Shown here: positions 8,923-53,937 of the stretch, piece after piece
How the letters are laid out: each line of letters opens with the position of its first letter
Numbering within the stretch: position 1 is the first letter of the stretch
Assembly (NCBI GenBank): GCA_963663235.2
Contig: CAXXNO010000004.1
Span: 132,515-196,514 of the forward strand
DNA from: Dehalococcoidia bacterium
Lineage (GTDB): Bacteria; Chloroflexota; Dehalococcoidia; Bin125
Reading direction: 5' to 3'
Length of the DNA stretch: 64,000 bases
Translations under genes and position numbers: made by a program
Notes under the pieces: model-generated
What the model was told of the DNA's origin: nothing
The model's input: only the letters and a program-made list of their open reading frames with translations
Databases searched by the model: none

Positions 8923-10998
8923 CTAACCGGCGGCGGGCGTCCCCTCCGCGAGCAAGGCCAGCAGGGCGTCCGGCGTGGTCACGGGCAGGCTGCACGTGAA
9001 GCCGTGACAGACGTAGGCCGTGGCGACGCCATCGCGCGGCTCCTTGCCATCCAGTTGCGGCACCTGCGTCGGCGCGCCAGGCGCTCTCTGCGCCAGGGCG
9101 AGGGTGGGGAAATAACCGTCCCGGACCGCGCGCAGGAGGGCTTGCGTATCGGCGCTGTCGGGATCGCCGACTACGGTGACGGTCTGGTGTCGCTGGAGCC
9201 AGTCGAGCGTGGTGACCAAGAGCGGCATCATCGTGGGCGCGCGCGCCAGGATCAGGGCGTGCGCGCGCGCCGTGGCCTCCAAGCGGTCGGCGAACTTCCC
9301 CTCCCCGGTGAGCGCGTAGAGCCGGGCCAGCACCTTGGCGGCGTGGGAGTTGCCTGATGGGGTGGCGCCGTCGGAGGCGGGCTTGCTGCGCGTGATCAAG
9401 GCTTCGTTGTCACTGCCGGCGGTGAAGAAGCCGCCGTCGGCCTCATCCCAGAACTTCGCCAGCATCTCCTGCCCAAGCGAGAGCGCCTCGCCGAACCAGC
9501 GCTCGTCGCCGGTGGCCTCGTGGAGCGAGAGGAGAGCGTCGGCAAAGGCGGCGTAATCCTCCAGGAAGGCTGGCACCGACGCGCGTCCGCCCGCGTAGAT
9601 GCGGAAGAGCCCGCCGTCGGGCCGCAACGTGTCGAGGAGGAAGGCGGCGGCCTGCTCGGCGGCTTCCAGGAAGTGCGGCGCGGCGAGCGTCGCGCCACCC
9701 TGCGCCAGCGCGTCGATCGCCATGCCGTTCCAGGCCACGATGATCTTGGTATCGGTCGCCGGCGGGATCCGGGTGGCGCGTTCGGCCAAGAGAGCCGCGC
9801 GCCCGCGCGCCAGGAGCGCCGCGACGTCCTCAGCGGACCGCCCCTGCCAGTTGGCGACGTCCTCCACACTCGCCGTCGGGTGCAGGATGGACTTGCCCTC
9901 GAAGTTGCCGGGATCGGAGACGTCGTAATAGCGGTTGAAGACCGGCGCGTCGTCGGGGCCCAGCAGGCGCTCGGTGTCGGCCGGCGTCCAAACGAAGTAC
10001 TTGCCCTCCTCGCCTTCGGAGTCGGCGTCGGTGCTGGAGTAGAAGGCGCCCTCGGGCGAGCGCATGTCGCGAAGCAGGTAGTCGAGCGTCTCCTCGGCAA
10101 TGCGTGCGTAAAACGGGTCCTCGGTGAGTCGCGCCGCGTCGAGGTAGAGCGGCGCTAGGAGGGCGTTGTCGTACAGCATCTTTTCGAAGTGCGGCACCAA
10201 CCACTCGGCGTCGACGGAGTAGCGGTGGAAGCCGCCGCCCAACTGGTCGTACATCCCGCCCTCCGCCATCTTGCGGAGCGTGAAGAGGGCCTGCTCCCGC
10301 GAGCGCTCGTCGGCGGCGGCGTGCGCGTAATGCAGGAGCAGGCGGGGGAAGAACGGCTGCGGGAACTTGGGCGCCCCGCCGAAGCCGCCGTCGCGCGGAT
10401 CGTAGGCCTCCATGATCGCGGAGGCGGTGGTGCGCAGCGACTCGGTTGCGTCGGGCGTCGCTTCGGCGGGGGCGAGGGTCGTCGCCTTGCCCAAACTCTC
10501 GACGAGCTTGCCGGCCTGCTGCGCGATGTCTTCGCGGCGATCGCGGTAGGCGACTGCAACGGACTCCAGCACTTCGGTCCAGGACGGCATGCCCATTCGT
10601 CGGTCCGGCGGGAAGTAGGTGCCGCCGAAGAAGGGACGACCGTCCGGGAGGCAGAACACGTTCAGCGGCCAGCCCCCCTGCCCGCGCAGGAGCTGCACGG
10701 CCTGCATATAGATCTCATCGACGTCGGGGCGCTCCTCGCGGTCAACTTTGATGCTGACGAAGAGGTCGTTCTGGCGTTGTGCGGCGGCCGGATCCTCGAA
10801 CGACTCGCGCTCCATCACGTGGCACCAGTGACAGGCGGCATAGCCGATGCTCACCAGCACGGGTTTGTCCTCCTGCCGCGCCTTCTCGAACGCCTCCGGA
10901 CTCCAGGCGTACCAGTCGACGGGATTGTGGGCGTGCTGGAGGAGATAGGGGCTGGTCTCACGCGCCAGGCGGTTGGTATAGCTCGGTTCGTCGGACAC
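8923..10998 (-). CDS. thioredoxin-domain protein of the DUF255/YyaL type (thioredoxin-like N-domain plus alpha/alpha-toroid)
   Basis: [56 protein letters not shown]. The likely start is GTG 10998, preceded by GGGAG with a 7-nt spacer. ATG 11091 is an alternative. Confidence 0.88.
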
Positions 10999-15185: not shown

Positions 15186-16082
15186 ATGGCGCTGGACCTG
15201 ACGGGGATCATGGTGGCGACGGTGACGCCGTTCACGGGGGGCGGGGCGGCGGTCGACCACGAGTGGATGGCCGGGCATCTGCGGTTCCTGGAAGACGCAG
15301 GGATCACATCGGTGTTTCCGCTGGGCACCAACGGCGAGGGGTCGTCGGTGGGGGTGGAGGAGCGCAAGCGGGTCATCGAGACGGCAGTGCGACACAAGGG
15401 CGGGATGGGGGTGGTGGCGGGGGCGGGGACGCCGTCGCTGCCGGACACGATCCGCGCGGCCAACGACGCGCTCGACGCCGGGGCCGACGCCGTGGCGATC
15501 CTGCCGCCGTACTTCTACGCCGACGCCGACGCGGCGGGGCTGGTCGCCTACTACAGCGCGGTGATCGAGGCGCTGCCGTCGCAGGGCCGGGTGCTGCTGT
15601 ACAACATCCCCTCCAAAGCGCAGGTGGACATTCCCGACGAAGTGGCGCTGGCGCTGCTGGAGCTGCACGGCGAGCAGGTGATCGGGATCAAGGATTCGAG
15701 CGGGGAGGTGGAGCGGACGCGCCGGTACGTGGAGCTTTCGCCGGAGCTGGCCGTGCTGGCGGGGTCGGACCGGCACCACGCGGAGCTGTACGGCGTCGGG
15801 TGCGTGGGCGGCGTCACCGGGCTCGGGAACGCCGTGCCGCACCTGGTGCTGGCGATCCAGGCGGCGCACCGTCGTGGCGGCGACGCCGCGCGGGCGCAGG
15901 CCGAGCTGGAGCGGCTGCGGGCCGTGCTGGCGGGCTTTCCGGCGTTCGGCGCGCTCAAGCACCTGATCACCCTGACGGCACGGCTGCCTCTGACCCAGGC
16001 GCGGCCGCCGAACCGGGACCTGACGGAGGAGGAGCGTCGTGACCTGGAGACCGCGGTCGGCGCCTACCTGCGGGTTGAGTGA
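15186..16082 (+). CDS. dihydrodipicolinate synthase family (DapA-like) lyase
   Basis: GIMVATVTPF.., FPLGTNGEG, and a Schiff-base lysine context (IGIKDSSG), typical of the DapA/NAL family. Confidence 0.88.
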   Translation: MALDLTGIMVATVTPFTGGGAAVDHEWMAGHLRFLEDAGITSVFPLGTNGEGSSVGVEERKRVIETAVRHKGGMGVVAGAGTPSLPDTIRAANDALDAGADAVAILPPYFYADADAAGLVAYYSAVIEALPSQGRVLLYNIPSKAQVDIPDEVALALLELHGEQVIGIKDSSGEVERTRRYVELSPELAVLAGSDRHHAELYGVGCVGGVTGLGNAVPHLVLAIQAAHRRGGDAARAQAELERLRAVLAGFPAFGALKHLITLTARLPLTQARPPNRDLTEEERRDLETAVGAYLRVE

Positions 16083-34812: not shown

Positions 34813-34826
34813 GGGGGCTGTCGGCG

Positions 34827-35205
34827 GACCTCACCCGCCTCTCCCCCTCTCCATCGGCAAGCGATGGAGAGGGGGAGAGGCGGGTCGGGCGGGGAGGGGG
34901 CATTCGGCGTCGGGCGGGGAGAGCTCACCCTTCCGCTGTGCGAAGGGCGCAAGCGCCCCCTGGCCTCCTCCATAGGTGGGGAACGAACCTCACCCGCCTC
35001 TCCCCCCTCTCCATCGGCAAGCGATGGAGAGGGGGGAGAGGCGGGTCGGCCGGCGAGGGGGCGTTCGGCGTCGGGCGGGGAGACCTCACCCTTCCGCTGT
35101 GCGAAGGGCGCAAGCGCCCCCTGGCCTCCTTCGACTCGCCTGCGGCTCGCTCAGGACAGGCCCTCTCCATCCTTCTCAGGAGGGAAGGATGGAGAGGGGG
35201 GAGAA
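34827..35205. repeat. composite REP/MITE-like array B-A-B-A (left flank of higBA)
   Basis: B units contain a perfect 23-24-bp stem (cccgcctctccccctctccatcg / cgatggagagggggagaggcggg, loop gcaag; 34834-34884 and about 35000-35052). A units contain cctcacccttccgctgtgcgaagggcgcaagcgccccctggcc. Confidence 0.9.
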
Positions 35206-35934: not shown

Positions 35935-36205
35935 AACCTCACCCTTCCGCTGTGCGAAGGGCGCAAGCGCCCCCTGGCCCCCTTCATAGGTGGGGAACGA
36001 ACCTCACCCGCCTCTCCCCCCTCTCCATCGGCAAGCGATGGAGAGGGGGGAGAGGCGGGTCGGGCGGCGAGGGGCGCTCGGCGTCGGGCGGGGAGACCTC
36101 ACCCTTCCGCTGTGCGAAGGGCGCAAGCGCCCCCTGGCCTCCTTCGACTCGCCTGCGGCTCGCTCAGGACGGGCCCTCTCCATCGGCGAGCGATGGAGAG
36201 GGGTG
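35935..36205. repeat. composite REP/MITE-like array A-B-A (right flank of higBA)
   Basis: By eye it aligns with 34921-35205 with only scattered mismatches over about 270 bp. It begins 10 nt after the higA stop and ends just before the stop of the convergent methyltransferase gene. Confidence 0.9.
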
Positions 36206-36212
36206 GAGGCCG

Positions 36213-36812
36213 CTAGGCGGGCTTGCGAGCCAAGAGGTGGGCGAGGGGGCGTTCGGCGTCGGACGGGTCTTCGCGGAAGAGGATGGGGTCGAGGGTGGGG
36301 AAGAGGGCAGGGAGCTCGCCGCGGTTGAGCACGTACTCCTTGTGGACGGGGGGCGGGCCGGTTCCGCCTTCGACCATGGTGACGAAGAGCAGCAGGCCGC
36401 CGGGGGCGAGGACGGCCTCGATCTGGGGGGCGAGGTTGCGCTGGAGGTAGAGGGTGTTGACGACGAGGTCGTAGGGGCCGCGGAGGAGGGGCGCCTGCTC
36501 GAGGTCGCGGCAGAGGGTGGCAATAGGCAGGCGCTCTTTGCGGGCGCGGGCGGCGATGTGGTCGCAGGCGACCTGCGAGGCGTCGATGGCGAGGAGGGCG
36601 AGGCCGCGGCGGGCGAGCCAGAAGGCGTTGCGGCCGAGGCCGGCGGCGATGGCGAGGGCGGCGCCGGTGGCGGGGAGTTGGTCGGCGACTTCGAGGAGGA
36701 AGGGGTGGGGGGCGTCGTCGGGGGGGCCTTGGGCCAGGGCGGCGCGGTGGCGGGCGTCCCAGTCGGGGGAGGGGGGCGACGGTTCATCGCCAGCGGGGCA
36801 GTCGCGCGCCAT
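36213..36812 (-). CDS. class I SAM-dependent methyltransferase
   Basis: Motif I AALAIAAGLGRNAFWLARRG, then LLAIDAS and a post-I acidic residue, with the PGGLLLF motif. Confidence 0.85.
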   Translation of the reverse strand: MARDCPAGDEPSPPSPDWDARHRAALAQGPPDDAPHPFLLEVADQLPATGAALAIAAGLGRNAFWLARRGLALLAIDASQVACDHIAARARKERLPIATLCRDLEQAPLLRGPYDLVVNTLYLQRNLAPQIEAVLAPGGLLLFVTMVEGGTGPPPVHKEYVLNRGELPALFPTLDPILFREDPSDAERPLAHLLARKPA

Positions 36813-45090: not shown

Positions 45091-45133
45091 CCCCAGCCGC
45101 CCGTCGCTCTCTCCCCAGCGGTCCATTCCGGCC

Positions 45134-45179
45134 GTCCCTGTCGCCGTCCTCGCACGTCCCTGTCGCCGTCCCTGTCGCT
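45134..45179. repeat. three copies of gtccctgtcgc(c/t)
   Basis: Copies at 45134-45145, 45156-45167 and 45168-45179 (the last two in tandem), directly upstream of the palindrome. Confidence 0.8.
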
Positions 45180-45182
45180 GTC

Positions 45183-45229
45183 CGTGCACGTCCCGACGCC
45201 CGGCTCTGCCGGGCGTCGGGACGTGCACG
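45183..45229. terminator. perfect 47-nt palindrome (22-bp stem, 3-nt loop), a terminator or attenuator candidate between the regulator operon and flbD
   Basis: cgtgcacgtcccgacgcccggc-tct-gccgggcgtcgggacgtgcacg. No U-tract follows. Confidence 0.45.
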
Positions 45230-45361
45230 TGAGGGGCGCCGGGCGGATCAGATCGGGAAAGGGTGTGGTGCGTTTCGGGAGGCGCGCCGCACGGCCTAGG
45301 GGCTCTCCCACTACTGAGCGCCAGAGCGCCTGCGCATACTGCTGAGAGGCTGGAGGTGCGG

Positions 45362-46414: not shown

Positions 46415-47202
46415 GCGCCCGCCGCAAGCACAAAGAGGAGCACAGCGAGGGCGGCGAGCGCTGGCTGATCACGTACGCCGACCTGGTGACGTTGCTCTTC
46501 GCGGTGTTCATTGTGCTGTACGCGGGCTCCAACTCAGACGAAGAACGGTTCGGCAGGACGGCGGAAGGGATCCGCCAGGCGTTCGATGTCGGGTTGGGGG
46601 TCCTGAGCGGCGGCGGCTCCGATCCGGGCGTCTTCGAAGAGGGCGGCGACGCCGTGCCGCTCCCAACGGTGCAGGGGAACAGCGATGCGGAGCCCGTGCT
46701 GCGCGAGGTGAACGCGCTGGCGCAAAGCCACGGCCTCAGTGGACAAGTCAACGTTCGACTGGAAGAGGGGCGGCTGATTATCGCGTTGGCGAACGACCTG
46801 CTCTTCGACGCCGCGAGCGCCAGCATCGATGAGCAGGCGATCACGTTCTTGAGCGACCTGGGCGGCGTGCTGGTCGATCTGCCGCAGCCGATCCAGGTCG
46901 AGGGGCATACGGACAGTGTGCCGATCAACACAGAAGCGTTCCCGAGCAACTGGGAGCTGTCCACGGCCCGGGCCACCGTGGTGCTGCGCTTCTTGGTGGA
47001 GCAGGCGGGAGTGAGCGCGTCGCGGATCCACGCGGCGGGCTTCGCCGACCAACGGCCGATCGCGGACAACGTGAGCGCGGAGGGTCGCGCGGCGAACCGT
47101 CGCGCGAACGTGGTGATCCTGTTCCCGCCCGACGAGCTTGCGGAGAGCCTGCCGGCGCCGATCGGGGAGACCGGGGCGGAAGTCGAGGCGGCGTTGCGAT
47201 GA
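46411..47202 (+). CDS. motB: flagellar stator protein MotB (OmpA-like C-terminal domain)
   Basis: ERWLITYADLVTLLFAVFIVLY plug/TM with the conserved Asp. The OmpA-like part reads EGHTDSVPI...NWELSTARA...NRRANVVI. ATGA overlap with motA. Confidence 0.93.
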   Translation: MSARRKHKEEHSEGGERWLITYADLVTLLFAVFIVLYAGSNSDEERFGRTAEGIRQAFDVGLGVLSGGGSDPGVFEEGGDAVPLPTVQGNSDAEPVLREVNALAQSHGLSGQVNVRLEEGRLIIALANDLLFDAASASIDEQAITFLSDLGGVLVDLPQPIQVEGHTDSVPINTEAFPSNWELSTARATVVLRFLVEQAGVSASRIHAAGFADQRPIADNVSAEGRAANRRANVVILFPPDELAESLPAPIGETGAEVEAALR

Positions 47203-47690
47203 AGGTGCTGAAGAACCCCAAAGCGAAGAAGGGGATAATCCTGCTCGTGGTCCTGGCGGCGGCGTATTTCGTTGTGTGGCCGCGCCTGCAAGGCGACACG
47301 AGCGAGATTGAGCTGCCGGCGCACCCGAACCCGGGCCCGACGTACACCGTGGGCCCGCGCGTGTACAACCTGACGGTGCCCGCGGGGGAGCCGCCGCGGT
47401 TCGTGAAGCTTGCGGCCGTCTTTGAGTTCGCGGAAGAGGAACCGGCCTTCTTTCTGCTGGAGGGGGAAGCGCTGCACGCGGCGCTGGAAAGCTTCGCGGA
47501 GGAGTTGGGCCCGAAGCGGCCGGTGATCGAGGACGCGGTGGGATCGACGGTGAGCGCCGAGACGTACGAGGACCTGGCGACCGTTGCGGGTCGCGAGCGG
47601 CTCAAGGAGGAGCTGAGCAAGGCGGTGGCCGTCGCCGTGGGCGAGCCCGAACTGCTCACCGTCTACTTGACCGAGTTCGTGATTCAGTAG
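47199..47690 (+). CDS. fliL: flagellar basal-body-associated protein FliL
   Basis: An N-terminal TM, then YNLTVPAGEPPRFVKLAAVFEF and C-terminal LLTVYLTEFVIQ. Confidence 0.85.
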   Translation: MKVLKNPKAKKGIILLVVLAAAYFVVWPRLQGDTSEIELPAHPNPGPTYTVGPRVYNLTVPAGEPPRFVKLAAVFEFAEEEPAFFLLEGEALHAALESFAEELGPKRPVIEDAVGSTVSAETYEDLATVAGRERLKEELSKAVAVAVGEPELLTVYLTEFVIQ

Positions 47691-47695
47691 CGGCC

Positions 47696-48811
47696 ATGCC
47701 TCCTAACAGCCGACTCACCCAGCGCGAGATCGACACCCTCCTGAGCGGCGGCCCAGGCGAGGGCGAGCGACAGCCGGCGAAGCAGCCAGGGGGTGTCTGG
47801 GGGGAGCGCGGCTTCGGCAAAACGGTGAGACGGTACGACTTCCGCCGTCCCGACAAGTTCTCCAAGGAGCATCTGCGATCGCTGCAATCGCTGCACGAGA
47901 CGTTCGCGCGGGCGGCGGGGACGGCGCTGACGAACCAGGTGCGCTGCAACGTGGAGATCAAGCTCTCATCGATCGAGCAGGGGTTGTACGAGGAGTACGT
48001 GGGGCAGGTGGCAGGGGCGTCGTTTGTGCACACGCTGGAGATGTCGCCGCTGGATGGATCGATCGTCATCCAGTACGGGCAGGACGTGGGGCTGTTGATC
48101 TTCGACCGGCTGCTGGGCGGGGCGGGCGCCCAGTTGGAGAACGGCCACGAAGTGACCGACGTTGAACTGCACTTGTTGCGGGGCTTCGCCGAGATGCTGG
48201 CCGCCGCCATGGGCGAGGCCTGGTCCAACCTCTGCCCGGTCACGCCGTCTGTCGCGGACACGCAGATGGACATCAACCTGGCGCAGATTGCGCCGCCTTC
48301 GGAGGTGGTGATCACGGTGCTGATGGAGATCACGCTGCTGGACACCGTGGGCGTCCTGAGCGTGTGTACGCCGTACAGCGTGCTGGAAGGGGTGCTGTCC
48401 CGGCTGAGCGCGCAGTCATGGGTGGGGACGGGGGGCCGCAAGCAACCGGGCGAGATTGTGGGACAGCTGCTGCGGCGGCAAATTGAGCGCACGCGCGTGC
48501 CGATCAGCGCCGACTACGGCAGCGCCTCCGTTCGGGCCCGCGACCTGGCGCGCCTGGAGGTGGGGGACGTGATCCGGTTGGATGCCCCCATCACCCACAC
48601 AGTGCCGGTGCGCGTGGGCGGGGTGCGCAAGTGGCTGGCGCGTCCGGGGCGGTCGTCGGGGCGCATGGCGGTGCGCATTGAACGGTGGGCCCCGGAAGAG
48701 GTGGCGGGCGTGGGCCAGAGCGCGGCGGGCGCGGGTGAGGGGACGACGCCGTTGCCGTCGCCGACGACGGCGGAACCGGCGGCAGAAAGCGAGCGCAACC
48801 GTGCCGCCTGA
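47696..48811 (+). CDS. fliM: flagellar motor switch protein FliM
   Basis: LTQREIDTLLSG CheY-P binding peptide, RRYDFRRPDKFSKEHLRSLQSLHETFAR, and a C-terminal SpoA-like domain. Confidence 0.94.
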   Translation: MPPNSRLTQREIDTLLSGGPGEGERQPAKQPGGVWGERGFGKTVRRYDFRRPDKFSKEHLRSLQSLHETFARAAGTALTNQVRCNVEIKLSSIEQGLYEEYVGQVAGASFVHTLEMSPLDGSIVIQYGQDVGLLIFDRLLGGAGAQLENGHEVTDVELHLLRGFAEMLAAAMGEAWSNLCPVTPSVADTQMDINLAQIAPPSEVVITVLMEITLLDTVGVLSVCTPYSVLEGVLSRLSAQSWVGTGGRKQPGEIVGQLLRRQIERTRVPISADYGSASVRARDLARLEVGDVIRLDAPITHTVPVRVGGVRKWLARPGRSSGRMAVRIERWAPEEVAGVGQSAAGAGEGTTPLPSPTTAEPAAESERNRAA

Positions 48812-49835
48812 GAGCGAGCCCGTGAACGGCGACTGGGGGGAGCAGGCGGCGCTGTGCGCGTTTGGGGTGAAAGCGCGCGAGGCCGGGCCGGTGGCGGTGG
48901 AGAACGTGCTCGGCAAGGCGGTGCGGCTGGAGCAGACCAGCCTGCGGCCGACGGCCGACGCCGACCTGGAAGAAGAATTCGGCGAACTGCGGCACGTGGC
49001 GATCGAGGCACGGGTGGCGCTGTCCGAGGTGGAGGCGCACCTCAGCACGCTGCTCATCCCCTTGCCGGGGATTGGGGCGTTGCTGGATGACGCGGTGGAC
49101 CCGGAGGCCCTGGACGAGAGCGCGGGGATGGAATCCGTGGAGCAGCGCAGCAAAGAGCTGCTGCATCTGCTGAGTCTCATGCTGTTCGGCGATTCGCCGA
49201 TCCCCGGCGAGATCACCCTGTCCGCCGTGCGGGTGGACGGAATTGACGAGAGCGCGGGGATGGTGGCGGACAGCGCGGGCGGGGCGGCGCTGCACCGCAT
49301 CGATCACGCCCTCACGGTGGGGGAGAACGATCCGGTGCGGATCACGTTGGTCGCGCCGGAGACGCTGCTCAGCGGCCTGGTTGCGGCGCTGGCCGGCGAC
49401 GGCGCGTCCGACGAGCAGGGGGCGGACGCGGCCGGCGCGGTCGACGAACAGGGAACGGACGAGGCCGACGAGGCGCCGATGTTCGACGACGAGGAGTTGA
49501 TCGCTATCGACCCGGTGGACCTGCCGGACCTCGACACGATCAGCAGCATGTCCGTGGAGGGCGAGCCGCGTCCGCTGGACCTGCTGCTGGATGTCTCGAT
49601 GCAGGTCAGCGCCGAGTTGGGCCGCTGCCAGATGACCGTGGAGGAGATCCTCAGCATCAGCCCCGGCTCCGTGGTGGAGTTAGACAAGCTGGCCGGCGAG
49701 CCGGTGGACGTGCTGATCAACGACCTCCTCATTGCCCGCGGAGAGGTGGTGATGGTGGACGAGAACTTTGAGGTCCGGATCACGGAGATCCTGAGCCCGC
49801 GGACGATCCCCACGGCGCAAGCGGAACCGGTATGA
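48801..49835 (+). CDS. fliN: flagellar motor switch protein FliN/FliY (long form)
   Basis: GTG 48801 overlaps the fliM end. The C-terminal SpoA domain reads LLLDVSMQVSAELGRCQMTVEEILSISPGSVVELDKLAGEPVDVLINDLLIARGEVVMVDENFEVRITEI. Confidence 0.9.
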   Translation: MPPESEPVNGDWGEQAALCAFGVKAREAGPVAVENVLGKAVRLEQTSLRPTADADLEEEFGELRHVAIEARVALSEVEAHLSTLLIPLPGIGALLDDAVDPEALDESAGMESVEQRSKELLHLLSLMLFGDSPIPGEITLSAVRVDGIDESAGMVADSAGGAALHRIDHALTVGENDPVRITLVAPETLLSGLVAALAGDGASDEQGADAAGAVDEQGTDEADEAPMFDDEELIAIDPVDLPDLDTISSMSVEGEPRPLDLLLDVSMQVSAELGRCQMTVEEILSISPGSVVELDKLAGEPVDVLINDLLIARGEVVMVDENFEVRITEILSPRTIPTAQAEPV

Positions 49836-50674
49836 AGACGGCGAAACCGATGTGGTTGATCGCCGGGGTCGCCGGGGTGGGGATCGGCGTGCTGGTGGTG
49901 GGGCCGGCGGCGCGCCTGGGCGAGGGGGGGGATGCGCTCTTCGCCGAGCCGCCCGATGCGGGCGAACTGGAGGAACTGGGCACGATTGGAGGCGCGAGCG
50001 CGGCGGCGGCGCCGGCCGACACGGCGGCCGACACGGCGGCCGACACGGCGGCCGACACGGCGGCCAGTGGGAGTGACGCGGCCGAGGCGGGGGAGATTGT
50101 CGGACGCAACGTGTCCTCGTTCGACGCAGGGGACATTTTCGGGCTGCTGTGGCGGCTGGCGCTGGTGGGCGGGATCATCTACGCCTCCATTTTCCTGCTG
50201 CGCAAGTTCGTGAATCGCAGCAGCCGGTTCCGCAGCGACTCGGGCGCGCTGCAGGTGCTGGAGACGATCGGCCTGGGGAGCAACCGGCTGGTGTCGCTGG
50301 TGGAGGCCGGCGATCGCATCCTGGTGGTGGGGAGCGCGCCCAACCAGGTGACCCTGCTGGCGGAGTTGAGCGATCCGGAGGTGGTGGCGGGGCTGCGCGG
50401 CAGCGCGGACCAGAGCAGTCCGGGCGTCGCCACGCTGGGCGAGATGATGCGCAAGTTCGGGCAGAGCGCCGTGCAGCGCGTCGTCACGCGCGACGTCACC
50501 AGCGACGTCACCGGCGACGCCGCGAGCCAGCCGGCGGAACGGCTGGACGTGCGGGCGCTGACGCCGGTCCTTGAGCGGCTGATGGAAACGCAGGCGGCGA
50601 TTGCGAAGCAGTCGGAGCGGCTGCAGGCCCAGGGCGACACGGTCGCCACCCCGGCGCGATCGGAAGCGGAGTGA
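49832..50674 (+). CDS. fliO: flagellar biosynthesis protein FliO/FliZ with extended repeat-containing N-terminus
   Basis: ATGA overlap with fliN. The TM plus conserved core reads [25 protein letters not shown]...[40 protein letters not shown]. Confidence 0.85.
50015..50062 (+). repeat. perfect 12-bp x4 tandem repeat (gccgacacggcg) encoding (ADTA)4 inside fliO
   Basis: Read directly from the sequence; it is in frame. Confidence 0.95.
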
Positions 50675-51856: not shown

Positions 51857-52630
51857 GTGTTCGGCCTCACAGAAGCGCTGCTTGCGTCGTATGTGCTGAT
51901 CGTGGTGCGGCTGAGCGCGGCGCTGGTGGTCATGCCGATGTTCGGGGGCCATCAGGTGCCGCCGCACACCAAGATCGGGCTGGCGCTGTTCCTGGGGTTG
52001 ATCATCGCTCCGCTGCAGGGGCCGCTGGAGCTGCCGCCGGGGCTGGGGCCGCTGTTGGTGGCGGCGGGGGGCGAAGCGATCGTGGGGATGGCGATCGGCT
52101 TCGCGGTGCTGCTGGTGTTCCAGGGCTTGGAGATGGCCGGCGGGATGATCGGGGTGCAGATGGGGATGGGGCTGGGCGAGGTGCTCGACCCGATCAGCGG
52201 CGCGGCGTCGAACGTGTTGCGGCGCTTCTATGGCGTCCTGGCCACGCTGATCTTCTTCATGGCCGACGCCCATCACCAAGTGATCGGGGGGCTGGTGGGG
52301 AGCTTTGCGCTGATCCCGCCGACGACCTTGAGCGCCGAATCGTTGAGCCTCCCGGTGCTGTTGCAGATCAGCGCGGCAATGTTCGTGGTGGCGGTGCGGA
52401 TCGCGCTGCCGGTCCTAGCGGCGCTGTTCATCGCCGATCTGGGCCTGGCGATGGTGGCGCGCACGATGCCGCAACTGAACGTCCTGGTGGTGGGGCTGCC
52501 GCTGAAGATCGGGCTGGGGCTGCTGATCCTGATCGCGGCGCTGCCCGCCACGGCGCAGCTGATGCACCTCACTTTCGGCGGCGTGCTGGACGCGCTCACC
52601 TTGCTCCTGACCCCAGCCGCGGAGCAGTGA
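51857..52630 (+). CDS. fliR: flagellar export-gate protein FliR
   Basis: A 257-aa polytopic protein in the conserved fliPQR position. It has a typical N-terminus (VRLSAALVVMPMFGG..VP) and MPQLNVLVVGLPLKIGLG. Confidence 0.92.
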   Translation: MFGLTEALLASYVLIVVRLSAALVVMPMFGGHQVPPHTKIGLALFLGLIIAPLQGPLELPPGLGPLLVAAGGEAIVGMAIGFAVLLVFQGLEMAGGMIGVQMGMGLGEVLDPISGAASNVLRRFYGVLATLIFFMADAHHQVIGGLVGSFALIPPTTLSAESLSLPVLLQISAAMFVVAVRIALPVLAALFIADLGLAMVARTMPQLNVLVVGLPLKIGLGLLILIAALPATAQLMHLTFGGVLDALTLLLTPAAEQ

Positions 52631-52638
52631 CGTAGCCC

Positions 52639-53937
52639 ATGCCCGGCGAGAAGACTGAAGCCCCCACGCCCAAACGGCGCGAAGAGGCCCGCCGACGGGG
52701 CCAGGTGGCGCGCAGCCAGGAACTGAGCGCCGTGGTGGTGCTGCTGGGCGGCTTGATGCTGCTGCGGTTCGCCGGCGCCGGGATGGTGAATGGGCTGACG
52801 GGCCTGATGACGGGCGCGTTCCTGAACCTGGGCACGGAGGAGTTCACGGCCGCCGGGATTATGGGGGGCGGCAGCGACGTGATGCTGCGCGTGATCCAGA
52901 TCCTGCTGCCCTTTCTGCTGGGAGTGGCGGTGCTGAGCATCGCCGGCAACGTGCTGCAGACCGGGCCGGTGTTGAGCGGGAAACCGCTGCGTCCGCAGTG
53001 GAGCCGCATCAACCCGGGCAAGGGGGCGAAGCGGATTGTGGGCAAGGACGGGATGGCGACGTTTGCCCGCAACCTGCTGAAGATGTCGTTGGTCGGCGGG
53101 GTGATCGTCTGGGTGGTGCGGGCCCGCTTCCCGGAGTTCAGCGCGCTGGGCAATGTCAGCGCCGAGGCGGGGAGCACGCGGTTCGCGGCGATCGCGTTCG
53201 AAGTGTTGTTCGCCGGGGCGGCGATGATGCTGGTCATCGCGCTGCTGGATCTGCTGTGGCAGCGGCGTCGCTTCCAGCAGCAGCTTCGCATGAGCAAGCA
53301 AGACGTCCGCGACGAACTGAAACGCAGCGAGGGCGACCCGGGCATCCGGGGCCGGATGCGGCAGCTGCGCCGGGACCTCTTCAACCGCATGATCTCGCAA
53401 GTGCCCAGCGCGACGGTGGTGGTGACCAACCCGACGGAGATCGCCGTGGCGCTGCGCTACGACCCGCTCTCGGACAAGGCGCCGGTGGTGGTGGCCAAGG
53501 GGCAGACGGCGGAGGCCCTGCGCGAAACGCTGGGGCGCGAACCGGAAGATCACGAGGTGGCCGAGGCGGCCGGCGTCACGGTGGATCGCTACTACACGAT
53601 GCTGACGGACGCCTCCTGGGTGACCGTGAGCCTAGACAACCTACTGGCTTCGAGCGCCGACGGTGAGGGTTATCCCGCCGCCGAGATGCCGAAAGACCCT
53701 GATGCCACTGACGCCGTCCGAACGATAGAACGGAAGGAGTTAGTTAAGGCGCTGGCACTTGCTATTGAGCAGTTGCCGGACCGAGAGCGCTTGGTGGTTG
53801 CGCTGTACTACCAGGATGAGCTGACCCAGCGCGAGATCGCCAAAGTGCTGGAGATTTCGGAGTCGCGGGTCTGTCAGTTGCACGCTCGATCGCTGGAGCG
53901 GCTACGCACCACGCTGCGCGTGCATTTGGCGGCTTAG
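52639..53937 (+). CDS. flhB: chimeric ORF: FlhB (residues 1 to about 293) fused in frame to sigma-28 (FliA) regions 3-4
   Basis: The FlhB part reads MPGEKTEAPTPKRREEARRRGQVARSQEL.., has 4 TM helices, then MSKQDVRDELKRSEGDP..VVVTNPTEIAVALRYD..APVVVAKGQ. It continues without a stop as LRETLGREPEDHEVAEAAGVTVDRYY..SLD..LPDRERLVVALYYQDELTQREIAKVLEISESRVCQLHARSLERLR. Confidence 0.85.
   Translation: MPGEKTEAPTPKRREEARRRGQVARSQELSAVVVLLGGLMLLRFAGAGMVNGLTGLMTGAFLNLGTEEFTAAGIMGGGSDVMLRVIQILLPFLLGVAVLSIAGNVLQTGPVLSGKPLRPQWSRINPGKGAKRIVGKDGMATFARNLLKMSLVGGVIVWVVRARFPEFSALGNVSAEAGSTRFAAIAFEVLFAGAAMMLVIALLDLLWQRRRFQQQLRMSKQDVRDELKRSEGDPGIRGRMRQLRRDLFNRMISQVPSATVVVTNPTEIAVALRYDPLSDKAPVVVAKGQTAEALRETLGREPEDHEVAEAAGVTVDRYYTMLTDASWVTVSLDNLLASSADGEGYPAAEMPKDPDATDAVRTIERKELVKALALAIEQLPDRERLVVALYYQDELTQREIAKVLEISESRVCQLHARSLERLRTTLRVHLAA
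53518..53937 (+). pseudogene. fliA: 3' portion of fliA (sigma-70 family regions 3 and 4 only), lacking region 2 and its own start
   Basis: The region 4.2 HTH (LTQREIAKVLEISESRVCQLHARSLERLR) and region 3-like LGREPEDHEVAEAAGVTVDRYY are present. No -10-recognition region 2 is upstream. Third positions are noticeably more A/T-rich from about 53630 on. Confidence 0.75.

Follow-up and report, generated by a model that had tools for sequence, protein, structure and literature searches.

Irreversible loss of motility has been described in experimental evolution of Campylobacter jejuni, where it arose through mutations in flhA, flhB and fliP and also because rpoN, a flagellar sigma-factor gene, was irreversibly deleted (PMC7677240). 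The locus described here resembles that system in combining lesions in type III export genes with kilobase-scale deletion of a sigma-factor gene, and in the occurrence of several independent lesions in parallel within one population. It differs from the C. jejuni case (PMC7677240) in that the evidence comes from metagenome-assembled genomes of a Chloroflexota species in nature rather than from cultures, that export gate and sigma factor appear to have been removed together by a single deletion which left an in-frame chimera of two protein families, and that microhomologies of known length (7, 11, 5 and 6 bp) mark the junctions.

The chimera was also compared with the families from which its halves derive. 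Its first 289 residues read as a normal member of the FlhB/SctU export-switch family (PF01312, TIGR00328) with a conserved N-terminus, but the last 78 residues are absent and the match to TIGR00328 (chimera residues 4–295, profile positions 2–294 of 348) scored 283.8, below the cut-off of 349.25. Its C-terminal 145 residues carry region 3 and the region 4.2 helix-turn-helix (HTH) of the FliA/WhiG sigma-28 family but no region 2, and the match to TIGR02479 (chimera residues 289–426, profile positions 87–223 of 224) reached 124.1 bits against a cut-off of 189.6. Joining of FlhB to a neighbouring flagellar protein is known from natural FliR-FlhB fusions (NF009411, PRK12772); the NF009411 model matched the FlhB part of the chimera, and a 619-aa FliR-FlhB example was present among the listed HMMER matches. 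In those fusions both partners are complete, adjacent genes have been joined without gene loss and the arrangement is conserved across species, whereas the partners here are truncated, four genes are gone and only one strain lineage carries the fusion. The chimera is an ordinary scar of gene loss, a known kind of event.

In the window (the whole 64-kb stretch of DNA analysed), the chimera and its parts were arranged as follows.

51857–52630: fliR, with the chimera directly 3' of it
52639–53937, + strand: flhB'-'fliA chimera, 432 codons followed by a stop (ATG to TAG), occupying the native flhB slot
52639–53505, + strand: flhB-derived part, FlhB residues 1–289 of 367
53499–53505, unstranded: deletion junction, the one leftover copy of the 7-bp microhomology GGGGCAG, codons G288-Q289
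53500–53937, + strand: fliA-derived part, FliA residues 120–264 of 264 plus the stop

The original prediction had read this ORF as an FlhB front continuing into a FliA back, and the ORF was present as described. Pfam searches, which it had proposed for fixing the domain boundaries, returned an incomplete Bac_export_2 match (chimera residues 3–295, profile positions 1–288 of 335), a partial Sigma70_r3 match (residues 290–327, profile 9–46 of 78) and a Sigma70_r4 match (residues 375–423, profile 1–49 of 50) in which the region 4.2 HTH was complete; Sigma70_r2 had no match anywhere in the chimera. The public annotation of the same contig likewise shows one gene with Bac_export_2 and Sigma70_r3/r4. 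Hydropathy analysis placed four hydrophobic segments at residues 27–51, 78–108, 142–160 and 180–209, in keeping with the four transmembrane helices anticipated, and the expected NPTx site was found as NPTE at residues 264–267. This motif aligns with the NPTH of Salmonella FlhB and is, on the strength of that alignment, a putative NPTH-type autocleavage motif. Residues 4–289 align with FlhB structures, and the flhB-derived part contains the N-terminal export-gate segment, the four transmembrane segments, the linker, NPTE and strands 1–2 of FlhB_CC. Missing from it are the C-terminal 78 residues (profile positions 289–335), a figure within the 60–80 estimated beforehand; by alignment these correspond approximately to Salmonella FlhB residues 295–383, comprising the helices and the strand that complete the FlhB_C fold. 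In the fliA-derived part, sigma region 3 is largely preserved, as are the linker and the region 4.2 HTH; the beginning of region 3 and, as had been claimed, the whole of region 2 (FliA residues 35–107) are absent.

A close relative carrying the undeleted arrangement was identified in ENA assembly ERZ25073950 (contig_16), where the gene order is flhB (367 aa)-flhA-flhF-pilZ/ycgR-like-orf116-fliA (264 aa); Logan contigs of runs ERR14231557 and ERR14231558 showed the same arrangement. Window and relative were collinear for more than 10 kb on either flank, with DNA identities of 99.2 % on the left (to positions 1–10867 of the relative's locus) and 99.6 % on the right (from 15965 onwards), and in a three-way alignment the window was short of exactly 5,104 bp. 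Comparison with this closest relative, also suggested in the original prediction, showed separate and complete parental genes 5.1 kb apart: FlhB filled Bac_export_2 from profile position 1 to 334 of 335, and FliA carried Sigma70 r2, r3 and r4, with r2 at residues 35–107 (Pfam). Compared residue by residue, positions 1–289 of the chimera corresponded to the relative's FlhB 1–289 and positions 288–432 to its FliA 120–264, G288-Q289 being common to both parent proteins. Two amino-acid differences separated the flhB-derived part from the relative's FlhB, and one separated the fliA-derived part from its FliA (99 % identity over 145 residues).

The sequence GGGGCAG occurs twice in the relative, in flhB (locus positions 10861–10867) and in fliA (15965–15971). 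When one indel was allowed, similarity at the junction extended to 11 of 12 bases (GGGGCAG[A]CGGC), and under random joining the probability of at least 7 bp of junction homology is about 0.001. A microhomology junction had been suggested as possible, but at the A(L/I)RE similarity; that placement was ruled out, as the break lies five codons upstream, at GGGGCAG. Lost between the two copies were the 78 3' codons of flhB, flhA, flhF, a PilZ/YcgR-like gene (236 aa), a 116-aa ORF and approximately 120 5' codons of fliA. Of the three genes originally thought to be deleted, flhA and flhF were indeed lost, but flhG does not lie between flhB and fliA either in this lineage or in the outgroup, 'bacterium HR29'. 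The two HR29 loci, with an FlhB 42 % identical, read flhB-flhA-flhF-pilZ-small ORF-fliA, and since this distant outgroup keeps the undeleted order, the window represents the derived state. The right flank of the deletion was undisturbed and begins with an ORF found directly after fliA in every strain, with a 109-aa counterpart at that place in the outgroup:

53960–54409, + strand: orf149, an ORF of 149 aa

Together, the 99 %-identical relative and the outgroup substantiate a multi-kilobase deletion whose ends were joined in frame, as well as the loss of the export-gate core and sigma factor from this locus, where flhA is deleted and fliA is cut. We therefore interpret the chimera as a pseudogene left by a recent and real chromosomal deletion of approximately 5.1 kb in the flagellar/chemotaxis supercluster of an uncultured Chloroflexota bacterium, a reading to which we give a probability of roughly 86 %. 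From an ancestral order of fliR-flhB-flhA-flhF-pilZ(ycgR-like)-orf116-fliA, everything between the two GGGGCAG copies would have been removed by recombination, one copy lying within the 3' third of flhB and the other where sigma region 3 begins in fliA. The route was likely RecA-independent illegitimate recombination, with microhomology-mediated end joining or else replication slippage or template switching as the mechanism, and the frames presumably matched by luck (a one-in-three chance), leaving a scar readable as a single 432-codon ORF.

Region 2 of sigma-70-family factors is responsible for core binding and −10 recognition, and FlhA forms the export-gate ring. The predicted product would retain the FlhB membrane domain with an incomplete FlhB_C fold, and its sigma fragment, without region 2, would be expected neither to bind core RNA polymerase nor to recognise a −10 element. 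As flhA and flhF are missing too, the type III export machinery of the flagellum would fail and sigma-28-dependent late genes could not be switched on. Because export apparatus and sigma-28 would both be disabled, the strain is most likely non-motile and the chimera a pseudogene, judging from established knowledge of these families. The search for compensating copies covered the window, some 20 kb beyond it on the downstream side and the protein collection, with a threshold of 90 % identity for FlhA. By tblastn, no FlhA, FlhF, PilZ, orf116 or other FliA segment (including the N-terminus) was found elsewhere in the 64-kb window. In the protein collection, FlhA at ≥90 % identity formed a single cluster of three members, all from other strains, and no second FlhA at this identity is on record for the deletion strain. 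Rfam and tRNA scans of the window gave no matches.

Further deletions were present in sister strains. Three assemblies from three samples carried a 23,709-bp flhF'-'fliF deletion between 11-bp repeats, and one of these also carried a 2,360-bp motB'-'fliN deletion (5 bp of microhomology) and a 145-bp fliR/flhB deletion (6 bp). These deletions are independent of the flhB'-'fliA event. They suggest that motility loss is recurrent in the species and that flagellum loss may be repeatedly tolerated or favoured in this population.

The foremost alternative to consider was an assembly artefact or minority variant, in which the full flhB-flhA-flhF-pilZ-orf116-fliA stretch is really present and chimeric reads or a rare deletion allele became the consensus. 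The sources are long-read metagenome assemblies with an imperfect consensus and visible homopolymer errors, contig names give only about 3× coverage for some related contigs, and template switching during library preparation likewise favours microhomology. Against this, two contigs, 651,864 and 950,829 bp in length, encode the exact 432-aa product, although the junction is judged from assembled contigs and the two assemblies that share it might derive from overlapping read sets. The window differed from the 651,864-bp contig by three SNPs in 21.3 kb, and a further stretch showed two mismatches and a difference in repeat copy number. Assembler overlaps and k-mers are all far longer than 7 bp, contigs of 0.65–0.95 Mb imply adequate coverage, and the flanks are collinear with the relative beyond 10 kb on each side. 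The similar microhomology-flanked deletions of the sister strains also speak against an artefact, and as the 23.7-kb deletion recurs in three separate assemblies, such deletions are a biological feature of the population. Mis-assembly of the junction, which had been raised at the outset as an alternative, is therefore unlikely, since the junction is common to two differing assemblies and a 7-bp match is too short to cause a mis-join; we consider the artefact explanation as a whole improbable.

The other readings concern a chimera that is genuinely present. It could be a new gene under selection, whose FlhB transmembrane domain anchors a sigma-28 region 3–4 module at the export gate, where FlgM, the anti-sigma factor, or −35-like DNA might be its target. 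FlgM binds sigma-28 mainly through region 4, the HTH of that region is complete here, and two flgM genes remain in the genome. The unbroken, in-frame ORF occupies an expressed position within the operon, and TAEALRETL, the helix just past the junction, is similar to AQRIREIA, the FlhB helix whose place it takes. However, none of the best 120 matches in a search of 5.8 billion proteins, nor of the best 150 in an exhaustive HMMER search of 1.84 billion protein representatives, was an FlhB-sigma fusion, each matching the FlhB half or the FliA half only. A conserved fusion family was ruled out on this basis, and the membrane-tethered region-4 protein floated in the original prediction lost ground with it, no protein outside this lineage matching both halves. 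The fusion is moreover younger than the split, at roughly 0.5 % divergence, from a relative whose genes are intact, and four flagellar genes, essential or accessory, were destroyed when it arose. The FlhB_C fold is short of its final 78 residues, region 2 is missing from the sigma part, and chance alone would yield an in-frame join one time in three. We regard a selected new gene as very unlikely. Comparably doubtful is a variant in which the product, made from the fliPQR-flhB operon and inserted in the membrane by its intact FlhB domain, would bind FlgM or promoter DNA through sigma-28 region 3–4, acting either as a newborn tethered regulator or by locking what remains of the flagellar regulon in a dominant-negative way. 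Reversed polarity, with the fused gene ancestral and flhA-flhF-pilZ-orf116 gained by insertion in the relatives, would account for the bare difference in presence and absence and nothing more. It is refuted by the HR29 order and by the profile matches: in HR29, as in all other homologues, FlhB and FliA are separate full-length proteins in the same order, and the relative's proteins fill their profiles end to end whereas both halves of the chimera are truncated. We consider it close to inconceivable.

If the chimera is the scar of a deletion, as we favour, an automatic pipeline that labels the ORF 'FlhB' would score the organism as flagellated despite its loss of FlhA, FlhF and a working sigma-28. 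The locus would provide a clean and datable example of bacteria shedding an expensive organelle, with export core and late-gene sigma factor removed together by one microhomology-mediated deletion. The uncultured Chloroflexota population may offer a natural case study of recurrent motility loss, a phenomenon that is itself well known. The closest named protein matches came from Dehalococcoidia MAGs and bacterium HR29. Among GTDB representatives, the closest FlhA (56–57 % identical) belonged to Ca. Amarobacter glycogenicus, an Anaerolineaceae MAG, and a 33-mer spanning the junction was absent, as was the species itself.

The deletion-bearing contig keeps the rest of the approximately 40-kb flagellar/chemotaxis supercluster largely intact, including fliF, fliG, fliH, fliI, fliJ, flgB, flgC, fliE, fliK, flgE, fliD, fliS, fliT, two flagellin genes and the che genes. 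As the remaining supercluster is mostly intact, the deletion is considered recent. One of its genes was split:

57518–58925, + strand: flgK, split, with one extra G in a G8 run at 58228–58235

Removal of one G restored a FlgK of 468 aa that agrees with the relative's at 467 of the 469 positions aligned. The run is also G8 in the other deletion-bearing assembly and G7 in the relative, and the split is either this regulon's second lesion or a homopolymer error of long-read sequencing. A homopolymer site in flgD of contig ctg36867 (ERZ28669063) may likewise carry a real frameshift or an error. In the undeleted relative, flagellum-specific decay by frameshift was rejected as an explanation for split genes, as the non-flagellar control region contained split genes too and most 1-bp indels lay in homopolymers, probably as long-read errors. 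The ratio of nonsynonymous to synonymous differences was 43:24 in flagellar genes and 28:25 in a 20-kb control region, giving no significant excess indicative of relaxed selection on the flagellar genes (Fisher p=0.26).

The greater A/T content at third positions originally reported for the last ~300 bp of the chimera was real, with GC3 falling to 0.57–0.67 over codons 331–370 against about 0.9 elsewhere. Because this dip recurs in the relative's intact fliA, it is a property of fliA in this species rather than an effect of fusion, and low GC3 as a mark of foreign or fusion-related DNA was discarded.

Profile searches and alignment confirmed the original prediction that a normal FlhB start passes without a stop into a FliA-type end, a single ORF encoding approximately 290 residues of FlhB and then the final 145 residues of a sigma factor of the FliA type:

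52639–53937, + strand: chimeric flhB'-'fliA ORF (ATG start, TAG stop, 432 codons)

The domain search proposed as a check on this claim (Pfam) found the FlhB profile incomplete at its C-terminus (Bac_export_2 at chimera residues 3–295, covering only profile positions 1–288 of 335), sigma regions 3 and 4 present (Sigma70_r3 at 290–327 and Sigma70_r4 at 375–423) and region 2 missing, with no Sigma70_r2 match in the chimera. The NCBIfam models TIGR00328 (FlhB) and TIGR02479 (FliA_WhiG) were matched over profile positions 2–294 of 348 and 87–223 of 224, respectively, and the chimera scored below the curated cut-offs for both, as expected because each half is a fragment. Four hydrophobic segments (27–51, 78–108, 142–160 and 180–209) and an NPTE motif (264–267) were identified. 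Alignment to Salmonella FlhB placed the end of the FlhB part at approximately residue 294 of 383, with loss of the helices and strand after the second beta-strand that follows NPTH. Judged on its sequence, the product would qualify as neither a functional FlhB nor a functional FliA.

The top matches to the two halves were a FlhB of 367 aa (P0001) and a FliA of 264 aa (P0007), both encoded on contig_16 of ENA assembly ERZ25073950, an undeleted relative, and again on Logan contigs from runs ERR14231557 and ERR14231558. The nearest named protein matches came from Dehalococcoidia/Chloroflexota MAGs and 'bacterium HR29', and the species is absent from the GTDB r232 representatives. In the relative, FlhB spans Pfam profile positions 1–334 of 335, FliA has regions 2, 3 and 4, and the gene order is fliR-flhB(367)-flhA-flhF-PilZ/YcgR-like-orf116-fliA(264)-orf149, with flhF encoding a 470 aa SRP54 GTPase and the PilZ/YcgR-like gene a 236 aa product (PF12945+PF07238). 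Identity of the window to the relative was 99.2 % on the left flank, ending at 53505, and 99.6 % on the right flank, starting at 53499, and 5,104 bp of the relative between these flanks was missing. A three-way alignment placed the break inside GGGGCAG, which occurs twice in the relative, in flhB (L002 10861–10867) and fliA (L002 15965–15971), and once in the window (53499–53505); given the local base composition, junction homology of at least 7 bp is expected in approximately 1 in 1,000 random joins. At the protein level, chimera residues 1–289 correspond to FlhB 1–289 and residues 288–432 to FliA 120–264, with G288-Q289 common to both parents. The absence of this segment from the window and the intact flhB and fliA of the relative support the predicted multi-kb deletion with an in-frame join, and in every testable respect the chimera has the features of a deletion scar. 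Some details of the prediction require amendment. The stretch from flhB to fliA contains no flhG (MinD/ParA-type) in this lineage; in place of flhG, the lost genes included the PilZ/YcgR-like gene and orf116. The A(L/I)RE similarity proposed as the junction does exist between the two proteins (FlhB AQRIREIA, FliA AEALRETL) but lies downstream of the true break. The A/T-richer third positions reported near the 3' end were confirmed as a GC3 dip (0.57–0.67 over chimera codons 331–370, ~53630–53750, in the variable linker that connects sigma regions 3 and 4), but the dip is identical in the relative's intact fliA and is thus unrelated to the fusion; HR29 fliA has no such dip. HR29, a distant outgroup with only 42 % FlhB identity, has the order flhB-flhA-flhF-pilZ-small ORF-fliA-small ORF-RskA-like-flgF-flgG-flgM; the undeleted arrangement is therefore ancestral and that of the window derived.

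The original prediction had also allowed for mis-assembly, and 1-bp homopolymer indels in the assemblies do reveal an imperfect consensus, but such indels are unable to make a 5.1-kb gap. The exact 432-aa product was found on two contigs, ctg36867 of ERZ28669063 (651,864 bp) and a 950,829-bp NCBI/ENA contig. The window differed from ctg36867 by three SNPs over 21.3 kb and, in another 20 kb, by two mismatches and palindromic-repeat copy number; the fusion is therefore present in no fewer than two distinct assembled sequences. We consider an assembly artefact or minority allele improbable: these non-identical contigs share the junction, an assembler would not be misled by a stretch of only seven identical bases, collinearity with the relative extends beyond 10 kb on both flanks, and the same kind of event was seen elsewhere in the species. 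A conserved, functional fusion gene, suggested previously in the form of a membrane-tethered region-4 protein, is very unlikely. A homologue of the whole fusion would score higher than a match to one half and so top any match list, yet the best 120 of 2,016 matches in a 5.8-billion-protein collection were all FlhB of ~360 aa or FliA of ~264 aa, and the best 150 matches from an exhaustive HMMER search of 1.84 billion cluster representatives each aligned in one stretch (query 1 to ~300 or query 289–427), with none in either set covering both halves. The fusion is also younger than the approximately 0.5 % divergence from a strain with intact genes. In the genuine FliR-FlhB fusions (NF009411), by contrast, both partners are complete and the fusion itself is conserved; one example of 619 aa was among the HMMER matches, and the NF009411 model was also matched by the FlhB part of the chimera.

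Flagellar type III export cannot proceed without FlhA, which forms the nonameric ring of the export gate; FlhB_C requires a complete fold for substrate docking and specificity switching, and a sigma factor without region 2 can neither bind core polymerase nor melt the -10 element. With FlhB_C truncated, sigma region 2 absent and flhA lost, the chimera is therefore best regarded, from established family knowledge, as a pseudogene and the strain as non-flagellate, in agreement with the predicted loss of the export-gate core and sigma factor at this locus. No compensating flhA or fliA copy was present within the 64-kb window, and no other FlhA of at least 90 % identity was found in the protein collection containing these assemblies. 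In contig_16, fliF-fliG are on the strand of flhB, 27 kb further downstream, separated from it by fliA, flgFG, flgM, flgN, flgKL, fliW, che genes, flagellin genes and fliDST. The deletion-bearing ctg36867 retains the genes of this flagellar/chemotaxis supercluster downstream of fliA, mostly at full length (fliF 523 aa, fliG 344, fliI 462, flgE 492 and two flagellins of 395 aa), and the 5.1-kb loss is therefore recent. Nonsynonymous to synonymous substitutions relative to contig_16 numbered 43:24 in flagellar and chemotaxis genes and 28:25 in a 20-kb control (p = 0.26); no significant relaxation of constraint is evident, consistent with the loss being very recent.

The chimera belongs to a known kind, the chimeric pseudogenes generated by deletion, of which it is a new example, and it is also an instance of flagellar gene loss. 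Motility loss of this type has been observed repeatedly; for example, in experimental evolution of Campylobacter jejuni, motility was lost via flhA, flhB and fliP lesions, and irreversible kb-scale deletions of the flagellar sigma-factor gene also ended motility (PMC7677240). Further deletions were identified in sister strains:

L007 13,387–13,400 (also L008 and L091; contig_16 record 56,528–80,237 as reference): junction of a 23,709-bp flhF'-'fliF deletion
L008 ~6,665 (window equivalent 46,877 to 49,217): motB'-'fliN deletion
L008 ~9,963 (window equivalent ~52,550 to 52,695): fliR/flhB deletion

Three assemblies (ERZ26167216, 1.1 Mb; ERZ25766727; ERZ25069191) stop 220 nt into flhF (~codon 73) and restart in the last 95 codons of fliF, comprising a TM helix and a tail ending VVQTWMRED. 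This 23,709-bp deletion lies between 11-bp repeats GGCGGCGGCGC and takes out fliA, flgFG, flgM, flgN, flgKL, fliW, che genes, flagellins and fliDST. One of the three, on a contig of ~3x coverage, also displayed a 2,360-bp motB'-'fliN deletion with CGTGC as the microhomology, the product of which was called as a MotB_plug+FliMN_C fusion protein of 354 aa, and a 145-bp deletion (microhomology CCCGCC) spanning the end of fliR with its stop and the start of flhB; these two are less certain owing to the low coverage. Strains of the species were at least 98.5 % identical over the aligned part of the flagellar cluster, and the distinct microhomology-flanked deletions indicate that independent events hit one cluster in different lineages of one species. 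The chimera is of value mainly as an annotation warning, and it also adds to a small natural set of flagellar deletions that arose independently within one Chloroflexota species.

One further flagellar gene was interrupted in the window:

57518–58925: split flgK, one extra G in a G8 run (58228–58235)

Removal of one G restored a 468-aa FlgK with 467 of 469 aligned positions as in the relative, which has G7. The G8 run was also present in the other deletion-bearing assembly, and the split reflects either a genuine secondary frameshift or an error of long-read sequencing at a homopolymer. Split genes in contig_16 comprised motA, fliR, flhA, flgG, cheD, a flagellin, fliF and fliI in the flagellar cluster, and, in the non-flagellar control region, Amidase_3 and a cupredoxin-like gene; the Logan assemblies of two runs had the same splits. 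Most 1-bp differences fell in homopolymers, and the splits therefore probably reflect errors in the long-read consensus and not decay specific to the flagellum.

Repeats and length variation were observed at several other sites. REP-like perfect hairpins (ACCCGCCTCTCCCCCCTCTCCATCGGCAAGCGATGGAGAGGGGGGAGAGGCGGGT) with ~160-nt spacing (34,825–35,205 and 35,938–36,217) lie on either side of two small genes (97 aa and a 100-aa HTH_3 protein), and the window and the other assembly of this strain have different numbers of copies. An intergenic poly-G near 31.8 kb (31,813) is 10 G longer in the relative. Upstream of flbD, intergenic region 45,131–45,230 contains GCCGTCCCTGTC direct repeats with strain-specific 22-bp and 34-bp indels, and a 45-nt segment matches this region in inverted orientation (45,183–45,229); the region had no Rfam match and may act as a terminator or regulatory structure preceding the flagellar operon. 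The window fliM (371 aa) has 15 extra in-frame bases (48,085–48,099) relative to both other lineages (366 aa). A 12-bp tandem repeat (CGGCCGACACGG, ADTA repeats) in the N-terminal region of the fliO-like ORF (49,990–50,040) varies in copy number between strains, and variation was also observed close by in G runs (49,924) and in a GGGCGA repeat (50,831). Two FlgM-domain genes were identified, one of 107 aa adjoining flgN (window ~56,661–56,984) and one of 92 aa upstream of fliF (L098 7,933–8,211). The genome also carries csrA and fliW, which indicates that this lineage of Chloroflexota has a FliW-CsrA-flagellin circuit like that of Bacillus.
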